A DNA stretch of 64,000 nt from a virus. Below are positions 16,308 to 33,798 of this stretch, one piece after another (position 1 is the stretch's first letter; each line of letters opens with the position of its first letter). Location of the stretch: positions 16,493-80,492 of the IMG/VR virus record IMGVR_UViG_3300012209_000006; one strand, 5' to 3'. The notes beneath the pieces were generated by a model. The model was not told where the DNA came from. It did not search any database and saw only the letters and a list, made by a program, of their open reading frames with translations. The position numbers were made by a program, and so were the translations under genes.

Positions 16308-17518
16308 TGGCCTTTCTTTATATAGACTCGTCTGGCGAAGAGCGTAACCGACACTCTTACAGTGCTGGTCTAGAGTTCGATCATTCCCCATTGAAATATT
16401 GGCTTCACCGCGTTATGGGTTGGCGCCAGAAGGATACCAACGCCGCGCTTCTGTTTGGTCGTGCCCTCGAAGACGCCATTCAGTTTTACCATGAGACGAA
16501 TCGTAGATCAGGTGAAGACGAGTTCATTCGCCTGTGGACGTTGGCGAAAGACAAGACTTTGGTTTACACGAAGAAGGAGGTGAGTTGGGAAAGTCTTCTT
16601 CGCGCGGGCCGGGAAATGATGCGCCTTTACGCGATACGGCAGCCATCTCTTCCGATTCCGATCGACACCATTTTTCAACGTGCGTTCGCCAAAGAGATCT
16701 TTCCAGGCAACGAGAAGTACGGCGGCATCGAGTTCTACGCCAAGTTAGATATGATTGCCTATGCGCCGCCAGATCATCCAATGCTCCCCAAGATGGAGTG
16801 GAAAGAATCCTACGGCTTGCTTCGGCCCGTGATCGTGGACATCAAAACGAGCGGCATCGATCTAGACGACACGTTCGGGATCGTCGGTCACGACCTGCAG
16901 CTGCGTACTTATGCTTGGGTGAAAGGCTCTTACGACGTCGCATTCCTGTGGTTTAAGAAGTGCGGGCACAAACTCAAGAAGGGCTGTAGCGTAACGCTGT
17001 TGGTTGATTCGGATCGATTCCTGGCCGGAGACGAGGCCGTGATTGCGTCCGTAGAAGGTGACAGTGCGTATCTCGTCGGCAACGACGATATGATTGAGGA
17101 AATGAGAAAGGCGCAGGGGTTCAGAGAAGGAACCAACTCTCTAGATACCACCAAGGCCGCCAAAGCCCGCGCCGCTGCGTGGCGTGAAGCCAACGCTGTG
17201 CTGGTGAAGGGTGAGAATATCACCCGGCAGCGGATGCAGTTCAGCGCTGCCCGCGTAGACCCTAAGAGCGCGGACGATGCAGGACAAATCGCGGCAGATC
17301 AGATCGTTCGTATCGTCAACGCCTGGGAAGCCAATCGGTGGACCAATACCTTCGGAGTGCGGTTCCCGCATGACGATCGTAAGGATCCTTATTTCAAAGC
17401 TTTTGTCTTGCGCGACAACGTATTTCGTGATAGTATGTTTGAGCAGAAAGCAGAAGAAGATTTGAACGATTATTTTGACGAGCCGGACGAGCTCAATGAG
17501 CCTGAGGAGGCTGAATAA
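16307..17518 (+). CDS. PD-(D/E)XK RecB/Cas4-like nuclease
   Basis: ALLFGRALEDA, KLDMI, IVDIKT, QLRTYA motifs; TAATG start. Confidence 0.8.
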   Translation: MAFLYIDSSGEERNRHSYSAGLEFDHSPLKYWLHRVMGWRQKDTNAALLFGRALEDAIQFYHETNRRSGEDEFIRLWTLAKDKTLVYTKKEVSWESLLRAGREMMRLYAIRQPSLPIPIDTIFQRAFAKEIFPGNEKYGGIEFYAKLDMIAYAPPDHPMLPKMEWKESYGLLRPVIVDIKTSGIDLDDTFGIVGHDLQLRTYAWVKGSYDVAFLWFKKCGHKLKKGCSVTLLVDSDRFLAGDEAVIASVEGDSAYLVGNDDMIEEMRKAQGFREGTNSLDTTKAAKARAAAWREANAVLVKGENITRQRMQFSAARVDPKSADDAGQIAADQIVRIVNAWEANRWTNTFGVRFPHDDRKDPYFKAFVLRDNVFRDSMFEQKAEEDLNDYFDEPDELNEPEEAE

Positions 17519-24987: not shown

Positions 24988-27129
24988 ATGGCGTTGGTCC
25001 AAGAAATAGCCGGGACATCTACGACTGGCAACATCGCTTTCGCGGATGTCAAGAGCCCGTCAGAAGTCTCCGATGACGCTGCTCTGAAAATCGTTACCAG
25101 AGATGCGCAGTATACTCGTTCCTGGATCGAAAGCCGGTACTTCAATATTCGATGGATCGAGATTGACCTTCTGTATCAATCGCCCCCAACGCTACGCGTT
25201 TGGGAAGGCACTTCGATGCCGAAGGCGAACATCGCCAAGTTCACGGTGGCAACGCACGTTAACGCCATCAACTCAAAATTGATCGGCGGACTTTTCTACG
25301 AAGAGCCTCCATTCAATTTGGTTCAGAAGTCAAGCATCAGCGCGGACACCGCGCGCGCAGTCGAGGAAGTTCTTTCGTACCAACTCGATGAGATGGGTTT
25401 CAAACAGGAAGTCAAGTACGGATTCTTTTCGTGCCTCCTGAACGGGACTGGAATTTGGAAGTGGGGCTGGAAGGATTATCATAGGACTGAGTGGGATTTC
25501 CAACCGCTCGAAGATCCTCAGGAATTTCCTGTAGATAATCCAGAGAAGCCCGGCGCGACAGAATCGGTTCCTACGCAGGATTCCGACCTATTCAAGATGA
25601 GCAAGGTCGATACGCTGGTATCTCATCCATTTTTTGAAAACTGCGACATTCGTACGGTCCTAGTGGATCCCGGCTGCCGCGTTCCCGACATTCGCAAAGC
25701 CAAGTTTGTCATTCATGAATTCCCTGTAACCTTCCGCGATTTGATGCGCATGAAGGACGAAGTTTATTACGACGAGAAGAATAACCCGATCTACCGTTAC
25801 AATCTTCCAAGCGAAGACGAAATCAGATCGTGGTTTGAAACACCCGAAGCAACATCACAAAGTATGTCTATCGGTGGTCAGAACATGACCTCCGGTCAGA
25901 ACAACACTCAGTTCGTTCAACACGCGGCTCCGTTATTCGTTAAGACAACGGAAGATCCGCTAGATGAGCCTCTCATCATCCAAGAGCGTTGGGATAACGA
26001 TAAGGTCATGACGGTTCTCGCCGGCAAGCGCCTTATTCGAAACGAGCCCAACCCATTCGGTTGCATACCGTTCTATTCGGTCAACTGGTGGATGATTCAG
26101 GATTGCTTCTGGGGTCTCGGCCTCGGAACAGCCCTGGGCGGCGAACAACGCCTCCAGCAAGGTTTCATCAACGCCGTTGCAGATATCGGCACCTTGGCGG
26201 CCAACCAACCGATCGTTCGGTCGCGCGGCGCCAACATCAACACGCAGCAAGTTCGCGCACGTCTCGGCGGATTCATCGACGTAGACGGCGACGCCACGAA
26301 GGCGTTGCATCCCATGGACATTCCCAAGATTCAAGGGGAGTTGTTCCAAGTTGTTGCGGCTTCCGAAGCCAGAACAGAATCGACATCCGGCGCGAGCGAA
26401 ATGCTCACGATGGGTTCGTCCAAGCCTAGCGGCCGCGGATCCTCAATGGGTCGCACGGCGACAGGCGCTGGCAACTTGATGCAAGCAGCCGTCGATCGTA
26501 TCGGCGGATTGGTTGAAGATTTCAACCGGCAAGTTTTGCAGCCGTGGTTGTGGCAGATGTATGACCTCAACCGGATGTTCTTGCCCCCTTCAGTCTATCG
26601 TGCAATTCTGAACGATTCTTTGAGCGGAAGCTTGAAGGCAACGTTCCAAGAATTCATGAAGGCGAAAAAGGGAATCAAGACCTTCACAATTTTGGCAGGC
26701 AGCCATTTGGCGGCCCGTCAGCAGATGGCGCAGTCGATGCCACTCATCATGCAGTACTTCACGAATCCTGCTCTTGCAGGACAGATTGCAGACATCAACG
26801 GTGAATACATTTCCTACTCGGAATTGCTCCACATGTTGACAGACGTTAGCGGTTGGGGAAGCTCTGCATATTATTCGATCTTCAAAAAACTCACACCGGA
26901 AATGAAGGCACAACGTGCCGCACAAAATCCGGCGGCCGCGAAGATGGCGGCGCAGAAAGCAAACAACGATCAGAAATTCGATCAGAAGTCACAGTTGCAA
27001 TCGCAGCAGTGGACAGAGCGCGCGGCGGGAGATATCATCCGTCACTCTCTTGAGCAGGCGGGTTCATCCGAAGCAATACAAGGTACCCCAGGCGGTGCCG
27101 GCTTCGGAAGCGCCGAATTAGCAGGATAA
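24988..27129 (+). CDS. Portal protein
   Basis: 713 aa directly after terL; NPF..IPFY, WGLG, SGASEM features of P22/N4-type portals; Gln-rich tail. Confidence 0.8.
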   Translation: MALVQEIAGTSTTGNIAFADVKSPSEVSDDAALKIVTRDAQYTRSWIESRYFNIRWIEIDLLYQSPPTLRVWEGTSMPKANIAKFTVATHVNAINSKLIGGLFYEEPPFNLVQKSSISADTARAVEEVLSYQLDEMGFKQEVKYGFFSCLLNGTGIWKWGWKDYHRTEWDFQPLEDPQEFPVDNPEKPGATESVPTQDSDLFKMSKVDTLVSHPFFENCDIRTVLVDPGCRVPDIRKAKFVIHEFPVTFRDLMRMKDEVYYDEKNNPIYRYNLPSEDEIRSWFETPEATSQSMSIGGQNMTSGQNNTQFVQHAAPLFVKTTEDPLDEPLIIQERWDNDKVMTVLAGKRLIRNEPNPFGCIPFYSVNWWMIQDCFWGLGLGTALGGEQRLQQGFINAVADIGTLAANQPIVRSRGANINTQQVRARLGGFIDVDGDATKALHPMDIPKIQGELFQVVAASEARTESTSGASEMLTMGSSKPSGRGSSMGRTATGAGNLMQAAVDRIGGLVEDFNRQVLQPWLWQMYDLNRMFLPPSVYRAILNDSLSGSLKATFQEFMKAKKGIKTFTILAGSHLAARQQMAQSMPLIMQYFTNPALAGQIADINGEYISYSELLHMLTDVSGWGSSAYYSIFKKLTPEMKAQRAAQNPAAAKMAAQKANNDQKFDQKSQLQSQQWTERAAGDIIRHSLEQAGSSEAIQGTPGGAGFGSAELAG

Positions 27130-29450: not shown

Positions 29451-29572
29451 GGGTGGCTCCCTCAAACCGAAAGGTGTCGTCAAGGCGTACCTTGAGCATC
29501 GTATTACAGGGGGCGAAAGACTAAATAAATTCCTCGGCTTGATCACCGAGGCTTAGACTTGAGGGAGAGCCC
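29451..29572 (+). ncRNA. Candidate multi-stem structured RNA
   Basis: Outer CTCCCTCAA/TTGAGGGAG stem enclosing ACC-GAAA-GGT, TCAAGG/CCTTGA and CCTCGG/CCGAGG hairpins. Confidence 0.45.
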
Positions 29573-29811
29573 ATACTCTCCCCAGGTCGTTCTTATGGGA
29601 GAATCAAAATTGTTCTGGCGCGCTGGATAACACGGGCCACGGTCTAGACCGAAAAGACAACGGATTAAAGCATCAGTATTTAAACGTGGTTCCGTGTTGC
29701 GGTAGATGCAACAGAATTAAAGGCGCCTATTTTACGTATGAGCAAATGATGTTGCTTGCTCCTCCGCTTCGAAAAATTCAACAATCTATTACGCCTCGGA
29801 TTGAGGCCTAA
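29563..29811 (+). pseudogene. HNH endonuclease remnant without start codon
   Basis: Frame reads ...GHGLDRKDNGLKHQYLNVVPCCGRCNRIKG...*; stop at 29560-29562 and no start upstream of the motif. Confidence 0.75.
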
Positions 29812-31168: not shown

Positions 31169-31731
31169 ATGTCTCTTGGATTTCCTGCTTCAAACGTCAC
31201 CGGCAATTTGCCGCAGTCGACGGTCAAGTTCTATGACAAGCAATTCGTCGAGAACTTGAAGGCTGAGACGCCTTTCGTGCGTTGCGCGGAACGGCGTGAT
31301 CTGCCTCTAAACAGCGGTAACCAGCTCGTGTTGTTCGAATACAACACGTTCGGTGCCAACACTTCACAAGCGACGGAAGGGACCCCGGGCGCAGGCATCA
31401 TCGCCTCGCTCGTTTCCAACACGTCCACGATCGGTGAGTACGCTGACTACGCTTCGTTCTCGAGTCTTGCTTTGGCAACCGCCATCGATGACACTCTTGC
31501 CAACGTCGCGAAGGAATTGTCTTACCGACTGGGCCAGTCTCTTTCGAACCTCGTTCGCTACAGCGTTGACGGCGCGTCCGCCATCGACTCGAACGTTCTC
31601 GTGCAGTTGGCAGCGGCTTCGAGCTCCAGCTTCACCTCCTTGTCCATCGGCACTATCCGCGCCGCGATTCAGTCTCTCGCCGGCCGTTCCGTGAAGCCTT
31701 TCATGGAAGCGAAAAAGCGGTTTGCCGGGAT
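31169..31731 (+). CDS. Major capsid protein, exon 1
   Basis: Follows scaffold; FYDKQFVENLK..LP..SG...IGEYADY resembles N4-gp56-like capsids; ends FAG-I at predicted 5' splice site. Confidence 0.85.
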
Positions 31732-31774
31732 TAACAATTACGCTATCGCGGCGTAACGGTCCCGGATCAACAAT

Positions 31775-31804
31775 TTGACTATATCCGTTAACCTCTGCTA
31801 TAAT
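31775..31804 (+). promoter_or_regulatory. Sigma70-type promoter inside intron 1
   Basis: TTGACT-18 bp-TATAAT, then GGAGG and ATG 31831. Confidence 0.7.
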
Positions 31805-31830
31805 GGCAGACGAGACGGAGGGAAGAACCA

Positions 31831-32349
31831 ATGAAAGTTTCTAATTGGCCGTATCTGGCCGGATTGATTGACGGCGAAGGTTGCCTTTCAATTTCTAAGC
31901 AAGTGAACAACTATCATAACAAAGGTCGTAATGATTACATTCAATACGGCTTTCGTTTAAGTATAACGAACACTAGTTTAGAGTTGATGAAATATTTGAT
32001 TGAACATTTTGGCGGCGTCTACTACACAAAGAGAACCAACAGTGATAACTGGTGGAAAACTTCGTATGAGTGGAGGCCGAAAGGTAAGAACAACAACGAA
32101 CGAGTTTTGTTGGCTGTTATTCCTTACATGGTAGTAAAACGAGAGCAAGCTAAACTGGCTTTGCTTTATGTTAGACTTCCGGAACAAGATCCTGATAGCA
32201 GAGAAAAGCTATTTAATCAAATGCGACTCCTCAATCGAAAAGGTTCACCCCCAACGACTAATACGTCAAACGTTTCTACTGAAACGAAGATAGAGTCTGA
32301 TCTCACGAGCGATCGTGAGTGTGCCCCTGTAGTGATACAGGACGCCTAA
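31831..32349 (+). CDS. Single-motif LAGLIDADG homing endonuclease
   Basis: WPYLAGLIDGEGC; AT-rich; 3' end overlaps the ribozyme core. Confidence 0.92.
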   Translation: MKVSNWPYLAGLIDGEGCLSISKQVNNYHNKGRNDYIQYGFRLSITNTSLELMKYLIEHFGGVYYTKRTNSDNWWKTSYEWRPKGKNNNERVLLAVIPYMVVKREQAKLALLYVRLPEQDPDSREKLFNQMRLLNRKGSPPTTNTSNVSTETKIESDLTSDRECAPVVIQDA

Positions 32350-32358
32350 ACACAAATA

Positions 32359-32744
32359 CGTACACCCCTTCGCATGGGGCGACGCGATTAACGACACCTC
32401 TAACAACAGCCCGATCGATGTGCTCAAGCACACCTCTGAAGGCCTGATGCGAATGGAAGAGCTGCCTTCTGCCGACCTCACGGAAGTTTTCGAACTCCCG
32501 GGAACCGGCGTTGATTTCTTCCAGACGAATCTCGTCACCCAGACGTCGAACTATAAGACGACTGGCGCGACGGCTCTCCGTACCTACATCTTCGGTCGCG
32601 ATGGCGTCATTGCTATCAACCTCGCGGGCCGCGGAGACACAGCGTACGGCGACGGGAATTACCGCGGAATCAAATGCAACGTAGTCCAGAACGCGCCAAT
32701 TAGCGTTTCGGATCCCGAAGGTTTGATCCCAGGATGGACCTCCT
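32359..32744 (+). CDS. Major capsid protein, exon 2
   Basis: Reads VHPFAWGDAINDTSNNSPIDVLKH...IPGWTS in the exon 1 frame. Confidence 0.85.
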
Positions 32745-32977
32745 TGAAAAAAGCGGCTTGACCGCTTTATGGGGTGCCTCGACGAAAGTCGAATAGCACT
32801 AATCTTCTCTGATTGACTTGAACCCTGAAACGGGAACAAGGGGCAAGCGAAAGCAGCCTGAGAGACTAAGTGAGAAGACGGCCTTAGGGCCGAAGCGATA
32901 GTCCGATCTCATGTAAATAGAAAGCATGAGACGAGAACAGAAATGATTCTCGCAGACGAAAGTCTGGTAACAGTATG
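32745..32977 (+). mobile_element. Group I intron 2 in capsid gene, ORF-less, 233 nt
   Basis: 5' exon ends in U, intron ends in G; IGS CUUUAU-GGGG pairs exon 3 AUAAAG and exon 2 UCCU; R GAGACUA, S AUAGUCC; P2, P8, P9 hairpins. Confidence 0.92.
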
Positions 32978-33060
32978 ATAAAGTCCATTTCACGGTCACC
33001 CTTCCTCCTGATCCCACACAGCGCGTCCGCCTCATCGACGCTCTGTCCGGCATCAGCTAA
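32978..33060 (+). CDS. Major capsid protein, exon 3
   Basis: Splicing gives WTS-Y-KVHFTVTLPPDPTQRVRLIDALSGIS*; exons total 1032 nt, 343 aa. Confidence 0.88.
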
Positions 33061-33084: not shown

Positions 33085-33113
33085 TTGACTTCCGAGAATC
33101 AGCGGAGTATAAT
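33085..33113 (+). promoter_or_regulatory. Sigma70-type promoter for downstream HNH gene
   Basis: TTGACT-17 bp-TATAAT. Confidence 0.8.
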
Positions 33114-33180: not shown

Positions 33181-33798
33181 ATGATTGCACATCCTGAAAA
33201 TATACGACTAGACGTATTAAGGCTGTTGAAAGATGGCAGAGGGTCAAAAGAAATTTCAACGCGCCTAGGTCTATCAGTTGGAGCCATAGAAGATTGGGCA
33301 GCAGCGTGGCGAAAAACTGGCGAGTTGAAAGCGTTTAAACGACCAGGATCTGAATTTACGGCCGAAGCAAAACGGCTATCTAATGGATATTATAAAAGTA
33401 TTCGCAAACGCTATTTGGGCATGAAGTGGTTGGATTACATAGAAAAAAGGCATTTCGGATTTGCTAGCCCAGTAGAAGCAATACATTTTTATTTGGACGA
33501 ACAAGGATCCCCTAGAGCGTGCGCCTATTGTGGGCGCCTTCCAATGAAAGATAAAGTGTGGGGTCTAGATCGTCTGGATTCCTCGATAGGCCACGTGCCT
33601 GGGAATTTGGTTCCGTGTTGTGGAAATCATCCAGAGAACCGGTTCATGTCTTGTCAAGTTAGCAAATCAAAATTCTCTTTATACGGATGGCTAGAAACAA
33701 ACATTTCCAGATCATTAGGCCGCCCCGCTACAATCGATGAAACTCAAGCGCGTGTTAATCAAGTCGAAGCGCTGGCTCAAAAGTTTATTCGAGGGTGA
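33181..33798 (+). CDS. Free-standing HTH plus HNH endonuclease
   Basis: HTH SKEISTRLGLSVGAIEDW; CAYCG...GLDRLDSSIGHVPGNLVPCC; GAGGTG RBS before ATG 33181. Confidence 0.8.
   Translation: MIAHPENIRLDVLRLLKDGRGSKEISTRLGLSVGAIEDWAAAWRKTGELKAFKRPGSEFTAEAKRLSNGYYKSIRKRYLGMKWLDYIEKRHFGFASPVEAIHFYLDEQGSPRACAYCGRLPMKDKVWGLDRLDSSIGHVPGNLVPCCGNHPENRFMSCQVSKSKFSLYGWLETNISRSLGRPATIDETQARVNQVEALAQKFIRG

Follow-up and report, generated by a model that had tools for sequence, protein, structure and literature searches.

The td, nrdB and nrdD introns of phage T4 reside in genes of nucleotide metabolism and encode homing endonucleases of the GIY-YIG or HNH type. Several group I introns can also occur together in one phage gene, as in orf142 of Staphylococcus phage Twort, for which three are recorded (Landthaler and Shub 1999, as cited in PMC6669764). 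The jumbo gut (Jug) phages possess about 18 group I introns per genome, spread across many genes (e.g., terL, nrdD and DNA polymerase), and their splicing is backed by metatranscriptome reads (PMC12880540). In crAss-like phages of the Delta and Zeta groups, capsid genes contain several group I introns, up to four per major capsid gene, and a Zeta-group capsid gene is known that lies in five fragments (Yutin et al. 2021; PMC7886860). A group I intron in the 23S rRNA of Coxiella burnetii "lacks the canonical Omega G" and is called self-splicing, according to the title of Raghavan et al. 2007 as cited in PMC3428280. The locus described here is the major capsid gene at positions 31169-33060 (+ strand) of a 64,000-nucleotide (nt) stretch of viral DNA (hereafter the window), which covers positions 16,493 to 80,492 of IMG/VR record IMGVR_UViG_3300012209_000006. 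Its late transcript very probably carries two mobile group I introns belonging to different families, and their removal would yield a capsid protein of 343 amino acids (aa).

In light of the crAss-like, Jug and Twort precedents, this finding belongs to a known kind. An intron-split capsid gene is already familiar from crAss-like phages, and what is new is its occurrence in a different, little-studied phage lineage. An earlier sequence-only reading of this DNA had listed nucleotide-metabolism, polymerase, terminase and lysin genes as the best documented hosts of phage group I introns; that list was incomplete, as capsid-gene introns are documented in crAss-like phages (PMC7886860). Those phages and the present one share an N4-gp56/HK97-type capsid and several group I introns, some with LAGLIDADG-type endonucleases. 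They differ in that the crAss-like hosts are gut Bacteroidetes phages, whereas the window belongs to a clade of Tunturi-3-like soil podophages with a relative isolated on Acidobacteriota. Moreover, the crAss-like introns were recognized mainly by protein domains, while here the RNA folds, exact junctions and two separate families are resolved. Features shared with the T4 introns include an endonuclease gene looped out of a peripheral stem, expression signals of its own, early stop codons and presence/absence polymorphism, but the gene invaded here encodes the capsid and the endonuclease is a single-motif LAGLIDADG protein. Like the Jug phages, the clade shows heavy invasion of essential genes by short group I introns and homing endonucleases; in contrast, both families here concentrate on the capsid gene, and one of them (family B) on the portal gene too. 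Twort orf142 offers a further parallel, with several self-splicing-type introns in a single gene and hence possible exon skipping between introns, although the host gene is another one and splicing is experimental in Twort, as opposed to being deduced from sequence in the present case.

The record is that of a soil phage of ~93 kb (92,832 bp, with direct terminal repeats and a rating of 100% complete). All large open reading frames (ORFs) of the window are read from the + strand; terminase comes first, then portal, then the capsid region. At 31169-33060 the ORF list contains only fragments, namely ORFs of 195, 172 and 113 aa, as the sequence-only reading had pointed out. When the uninterrupted 343-aa major head protein of Tunturiibacter phage Tunturi_3 is searched against the window with tblastn, it aligns in three pieces: 31175-31729 (aa 1-187), 32360-32743 (aa 188-316) and 32978-33057 (aa 318-343). 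Exon 1 (31169-31731, + strand, 563 nt) encodes aa 1-187 plus two nt of codon 188, and its product is 62% identical to Tunturi_3 aa 1-187. Exon 2 (32359-32744, + strand, 386 nt) encodes aa 188-316, with 67% identity to the same residues of Tunturi_3, while exon 3 (32978-33060, + strand, 83 nt) supplies aa 317-343 and the stop codon, with 58% identity to the Tunturi_3 C-terminus and full identity to close homologues. Joined, the exons amount to 1032 nt (563+386+83) and encode 343 aa plus a stop. The junctions of the spliced product read FAGI|VHPF and GWTS|YKVHF, as they do in uninterrupted 343-aa homologues, and the claim that removal of intron 2 restores WTSYKVHF holds. A search of a large protein collection retrieved such uninterrupted homologues at up to 98% identity, and the closest of them (P0001) matches the spliced protein at 336/343 positions.

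The boundaries are equally clear at the DNA level. When the gene is aligned with intronless alleles (loci L003-L006, whose proteins are 92-97% identical), the insertions map to 31732-32358 (627 nt) and 32745-32977 (233 nt), with insertion points that cannot slide. The three-exon gene of 563+386+83 nt, first assembled by hand splicing, is confirmed to the base by these alleles and by tblastn. Both insertions are poorer in GC (0.42 for intron 1 and 0.48 for intron 2) than the exons (0.57), and both bring in-frame stops soon after the 5′ splice site: the frame of exon 1 continues 8 codons into intron 1, to a TAA at 31754, and a stop follows within 5 codons in intron 2. Profiles built without the window's own copies recover intron 2 with an expect value (E) of 3.8e-40 and the two halves of intron 1 with E 2.9e-18 and 1.7e-30, which is far beyond chance.

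Intron 2 (32745-32977, + strand, 233 nt, family B) contains no ORF and displays a complete group I fold. The sequence-only reading had credited it with a textbook internal guide sequence, a U.G splice site and a terminal G; all three are present, together with a contiguous P10 helix. P1 consists of UCCU/GGGG, a 4-bp helix that places U32744.G at the 5′ splice site. In P10, exon 3 pairs through its initial six bases (AUAAAG) with CUUUAU, immediately 5′ of the guide GGGG. By pairing with the last bases of exon 2 and the first bases of exon 3, the guide aligns the two exons. Scored by script, P1 and P10 give 4+7 contiguous pairs, the best of four registers tried. The hand-read fold continues from a P1 extension hairpin through P2 (GAAA loop), P3, P4-J4/5-P5 with A-rich joints and P6 (GAAA loop) to P7, G[A]GACUA/UAGUCC, in which a G-C pair lies beside a bulged A. 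It then proceeds through P8, J8/7 (AAGCGA), P9, P9.1 and P9.2 (GAAA loop) to the 3′ end, ...AGUAUG.

This fold is borne out by comparison with other family B members. A scan of viral contigs with the P4-P5 motif yielded 23 contigs, from which 15 introns with clean borders were aligned. RNAalifold recovered P3, P4, P5, P6, P8, P9 and P9.1 from the alignment, with compensatory changes in 30/38 pairs. When the full structure is considered, including the P3/P7 pseudoknot, 58 pairs are 89% paired across the 15 introns and double changes occur in 45/58 of them; none of 500 shuffles did as well, and slid controls reached only 34-41% pairing. Paired fractions for individual helices are 98% (P3), 96% (P4), 94% (P6), 100% (P7), 96% (P8) and 96% (P9), and the guanosine-binding G-C pair of P7 (columns 165/209) is invariant in 15/15.

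Intron 1 (31732-32358, + strand, 627 nt, family A) begins with UAACAA, ends with ...CACAAAUA and interrupts codon 188. Its internal guide, ACG|GUCCCGG (31756-31765, + strand), pairs with CCGGGAU at the end of exon 1 to form a 7-bp P1, with U31731.G31759 at the splice site, and with CGU at the start of exon 2 to form a 3-bp P10; the two helices are contiguous over the ligated junction with a shift of 0. Introns at the same site in two relatives (L129 and L130) have the same P1/P10 architecture with compensatory changes. The first 99 nt hold P1, P3 (UUUGAC), P4 (UCCGU/ACGGA), P5 and the 5′ strand of P6, with no P2. The 3′ half of the core (32244-32358, + strand, ~115 nt) holds P6′, P7 (GACU/AGUC, with the G-C binding pair), P3′ (GUCAAA), P8, J8/7 (AAGAUAG), P7′, P9 and P9.1 (with GCGA and GUGA loops, respectively), P9.0 and the terminal A. 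For family A, a scan of metagenomes with a P7-P3′-J8/7 pattern gave 50 contigs. In 19 introns from these contigs, pairing of P3, P4, P6, P8, P9 and P9.1 is preserved through numerous compensatory changes, such as CCGUC/GACGG versus CGGUG/UACCG in P4.

Between the two halves of the intron 1 core, an ORF for a LAGLIDADG homing endonuclease (31831-32349, + strand, 172 aa) is looped out of P6, and its tail reads through the 3′ ribozyme core. The ORF matches Pfam PF00961 (LAGLIDADG_1) at 36.8 bits, above the cut-off of 23.1, with the motif LAGLIDGEG at residues 9-17. Homologues with 28-53% identity are found inside the capsid-gene introns of many related contigs. A pattern search of viral contigs returned no close relative of the protein. 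A sigma-70-like promoter (TTGACT-18-TATAAT at 31775-31804, + strand) is predicted ahead of the ORF by a consensus scan, as a pattern match at 11/12 positions; its -35 element overlaps a strand of P3 and its -10 element falls within loop L5. In the family A alignment, the -35-like TTGACT is the conserved P3/J3-4 segment, and TATAAT often lies in loop L5. It seems, therefore, that a predicted endonuclease promoter is built into the family A ribozyme core.

Several points weigh against reading the two insertions as introns that splice. The Rfam group I model (RF00028) places intron 1 below threshold (25.6 bits versus 50), with its P7-P9 part aligned and its 5′ half misaligned into the ORF, and misses intron 2 altogether, with no match at E<=10 for a 321-nt query; a family B homologue (L008) is likewise without a match. 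In addition, P1 of intron 2 measures just 4 bp, two of which are G.U. Intron 1 ends in A even though its P7 has the canonical G-C guanosine-binding pair, and in model ribozymes such as that of Tetrahymena, exon ligation is blocked or strongly slowed when the terminal G is changed to A. Finally, splicing of both introns in vivo is something that we infer from their sequences.

The Rfam results have plausible explanations. The low score of intron 1 is attributed to the ORF that interrupts P6, and an ORF-less homologue of it in another capsid gene (L051:3307-3535, 229 nt) attains 62.5 bits (E 3.6e-14) against the threshold of 50. The miss of intron 2 is read as a limit of the single Rfam model because of the covariation evidence. 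The outcome of the Rfam check was mixed, favorable for the intron 1 homologue but neither for intron 1 itself nor for intron 2. By its descent and fold, intron 1 would be a member of the group I lineage, yet an atypical one, and intron 2 is, on the comparative evidence, a group I intron of a family outside the reach of Rfam's single model. That both insertions are group I introns, as was first proposed, is supported by their group I anatomy, the covariation within each family and the above-threshold score of the L051 intron.

The terminal base of intron 1 calls for closer attention. The "textbook" description is appropriate for intron 2 alone, since the last base of intron 1 is A32358 instead of G (context ...CACAAAUA|CGUACA). 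The guide and the ligated exons form a single 10-bp helix (7 pairs of P1 and 3 of P10), which puts the 3′ splice site directly after A32358. Introns at the same site in L129/L143, L130/L133/L141/L155 and L145 also end in A, and in L129 and L130 there is no G within reach of the 3′ end; P1/P10 of these two differ from one another by compensatory changes (e.g., CAUUC/GAAUG versus CAUAC/GUAUG). In total, nine distinct A-ending family A introns occupy five capsid sites. P9.0, in which the two bases preceding the last base pair with J7/9, covaries in 22/26 introns (AA/UU, AU/AU, GA/UC). As this covariation is alike in G-ending and A-ending introns, the A sits in the structural position of the usual G, and P7 is identical between the two groups. 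On these comparisons, the terminal A is a heritable feature of a sub-lineage and no mistake of assembly. That the exons are intact and the pairings maintained argues for splicing of the A-ending introns, and intron 1 probably completes exon ligation despite its last base.

Other 3′ ends were considered and rejected. An end at G32344 would add PKHKY to a conserved motif, an insertion seen in no homologue. An end at G32360, combined with a 5′ splice site after A31733, loses the U.G pair and the contiguous P1/P10, leaving 6 paired positions versus 10, and is impossible for the same-site introns of L129 and L130, which have no G nearby. The same end with the U31731 splice site shifts the frame. 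Literature searches for a terminal adenosine gave no match. Intron 1 and the Coxiella intron are alike as natural group I introns without a terminal G. They differ in setting. The Coxiella case is reportedly a single instance, in the rRNA of one genome, whereas the nine A-ending introns considered here occupy five sites of a late phage gene that encodes a protein.

Given the observed insertion points, comparative RNA folds, endonuclease family and capsid fold, expression of the gene may be envisaged as follows. Two independent ribozymes would be excised from the late capsid transcript. Intron 2 would do so in canonical fashion, with a terminal G and a guide that base-pairs to the 3′ edge of exon 2 (U.G at 32744) as well as to the beginning of exon 3. 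Intron 1 would use the same core architecture, with the LAGLIDADG gene looped out of P6 and preceded by its own promoter-like site and a ribosome-binding site. The endonuclease, presumably active, would cut intronless capsid alleles of co-infecting relatives, such that intron 1 is copied in (homing), whereas intron 2 may be mobile passively or through the enzyme of a neighbor. With both excised, the 563, 386 and 83 nt of the exons would be joined to form the mRNA for an N4-gp56-type capsid protein of 343 aa with the HK97 fold.

Three other explanations can be weighed against this scheme, and none fits the comparative data as well as two spliced introns do. In the one that deserves most attention, though it is improbable, intron 1 is crippled: it carries out the first step only, and the exons are ligated poorly or wrongly (e.g., after G32360, with a frame shift), so that the gene is a pseudogene, gives a low yield or depends on a helper, for instance a co-infecting phage, or the LAGLIDADG protein in the role of a maturase. 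The terminal A32358 is what such an account would start from, along with a G two bases downstream, use of which breaks the frame, and a P7 G-binding pair unchanged from G-ending relatives. Against it stand the nine A-ending family A introns at five sites, with P1, P10 and P9.0 intact and covarying. Among them, those of L129 and L130 have diverged with compensatory P1/P10 changes while both keep the A and offer no alternative G nearby, and the capsid exons of same-site relatives are intact. The Coxiella intron, judging by the title cited in PMC3428280, self-splices without the canonical terminal G.

Much further down the scale is the idea that there is no RNA splicing at all, and that the insertions are endonuclease or selfish DNA between capsid fragments that are translated separately and then assembled, as with split genes in some T4-like phages. 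Exons 1 and 2 do share a frame, and gene callers report many fragment-length "proteins" of the capsid family. However, just 27 aa would come from exon 3, a convincing start or ribosome-binding site is lacking in exon 2, intron 2 is devoid of any ORF, and both insertions possess conserved, covarying ribozyme cores with guides matched to their own junctions. Less probable still is an assembly artefact or chimera; the record is a metagenomic virus genome, but homologous introns are present at both sites in independent contigs, which derive from other samples. The genome also possesses direct terminal repeats and a completeness rating of 100%.

The product of the joined exons was compared with known capsid proteins. 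Exon 1 matches PHROG 1357 (major head protein) with E 9e-14. A full-length homologue used as the query in a profile search matches TIGR04387 (N4-gp56 major capsid, NCBIfam) with E 4e-12, in its N-terminal half only; as its 45.9 bits fall short of the curated cut-off of 60, the protein counts as a relative of the N4-gp56 family and not an equivalog. Sequence searches against solved structures gave no match in one case and one weak capsid match in another. An AlphaFold model of a 98%-identical uninterrupted homologue reached a mean predicted local distance difference test score (pLDDT) of 87.8 and a predicted template modeling score (pTM) of 0.82 with an input of 57 diverse homologues from a library-wide profile search, while a shallow alignment of 20 close homologues gave a pLDDT of 32. 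Foldseek with this model returned the phage N4 capsid as the top match (E 2e-12); the leading matches were the N4, A4, Moo19 and GP4 capsids (E about 1e-12, probability 1.00), and many further capsids with the HK97 fold ranked below them. According to the modeled homologue, the three exons together encode an N4-gp56-type capsid protein with the full-length HK97 fold, and the lack of such a match, which the sequence-only reading had named as grounds for abandoning its proposal, did not materialize.

Introns of the two families also occur in relatives of this phage, the Tunturi-3-like soil phages. The searches behind the counts below were seeded with patterns, and the counts should not be taken as unbiased frequencies. 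A junction-finding script run on all fetched loci gave 41 distinct introns of families A and B at 22 positions, or ~20 sites after hand correction of the register. Family A introns lie mostly in the first two thirds of the gene, and those of family B mostly in the last third. The site of intron 1 (563) is occupied in the independent contigs of L129, L130, L133, L141, L143, L145 and L155, and that of intron 2 (949) in L090 and L097. Of the 80 capsid loci in viral contigs that are closest to the window's, just three have an intron (nt 887 in L008, nt 812 in L051 and nt 172 in L011), and all three sites differ from those of the window. Near-identical alleles vary in content, with none in L003 and one at another site in L008, as expected of mobile elements. 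At the other extreme, the capsid gene at L090:4642-7915 extends over 3.3 kb with four introns, and other genes have two or three. Of the four in L090, two are family B introns without an ORF (236 and 189 nt) and the others are large, with LAGLIDADG ORFs. Most ORF-bearing introns of the relatives encode LAGLIDADG proteins, 28-53% identical to that of the window.

Taken as a whole, the capsid gene of Tunturi-3-like phages may be a homing ground for two intron families over ~20 sites, including a mobile family A sub-lineage that would splice with a 3′-terminal A despite a canonical guanosine-binding pair, a proposition that we consider evenly balanced between true and false. The searches found no counterpart elsewhere for the scale of site-hopping in one gene, for an intron family missed by Rfam or for a recurrent A-ending sub-lineage. 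Two intron-bearing contigs, QGNH01000767.1 and QGNH01001870.1, represent viral operational taxonomic units (vOTUs) grouped with Tunturi 3; the Tunturi paper clusters them in this way and leaves their introns unmentioned.

These introns have practical and mechanistic consequences. Gene callers fragment the capsid gene, and intron-split capsid genes are mis-annotated at scale. Protein libraries contain fragment-length "proteins" of the capsid family (P0143, P0151, P0156, P0161, P0179, P0192 and others), the ends of which fall at intron sites, at about residues 57, 92, 188 and 190. As a result, capsid-based classification and annotation of an abundant soil phage group fails unless introns are modeled. 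The most abundant virion protein would depend on two ribozymes in this phage and on up to four in relatives. With ~20 insertion sites in one gene, the clade is a natural system for studying how introns change targets by retuning the guide sequence, and the recurrent A-ending introns are a direct test of how essential the terminal G is. If they splice, the terminal G would be dispensable in vivo for this class of ribozyme, and P10 and P9.0 would define the 3′ splice site.

Beyond the capsid gene, family B is seen in the portal gene of relatives (L087:4883-5105, L089:3699-3922 and L088:1902-2089, with duplicates in L094, L096, L099, L100 and L102). The site corresponds to about residue 80 of the window's portal (..VYENT|YVLEP..), the gene for which (24988-27129) is uninterrupted. 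An nhmmer search of the 92.8-kb genome found no further copies of either family, and an Rfam scan of the whole window at gathering thresholds returned one tRNA only. A strict version of the family A pattern retrieved the contig of L051 only, and a 17-mer scan gave mostly chance matches. The family A core pattern also matches introns that precede an apparent large-subunit rRNA (..GAACUGUCUAAAAGUAGCGAAAU..) in L123, L124, L138, L148 and L154, which suggests that capsid-gene family A may be related to a class of rRNA introns.

Outside the split gene, a free-standing gene downstream of it (33181-33798, + strand) encodes an endonuclease with a helix-turn-helix and an HNH/EndoVII-like domain (Pfam HTH_28, PHROG 1035). 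A sigma-70-like promoter is predicted for it at 33085-33113 (consensus scan, 11/12). Homologues of this HNH protein with 50-60% identity are encoded just downstream of capsid genes with or without introns, and the closest relatives have a remnant of the gene or none, never an intact copy. Collaborative homing of intron 2 by means of the downstream HNH enzyme was considered but is unsupported by co-occurrence, given that HNH homologues follow capsid genes without intron 2 in L069, L071, L079, L080, L116 and L158. With homologues beside capsid genes both with and without intron 2, the link to this intron is unproven. A start-less remnant of a second HNH endonuclease (..LDRKDN..VVPCCGRCNRIKG..) lies upstream at 29563-29811, flanked by an ORF of 128 aa and one of 457 aa, the latter being the ORF ahead of the capsid gene.

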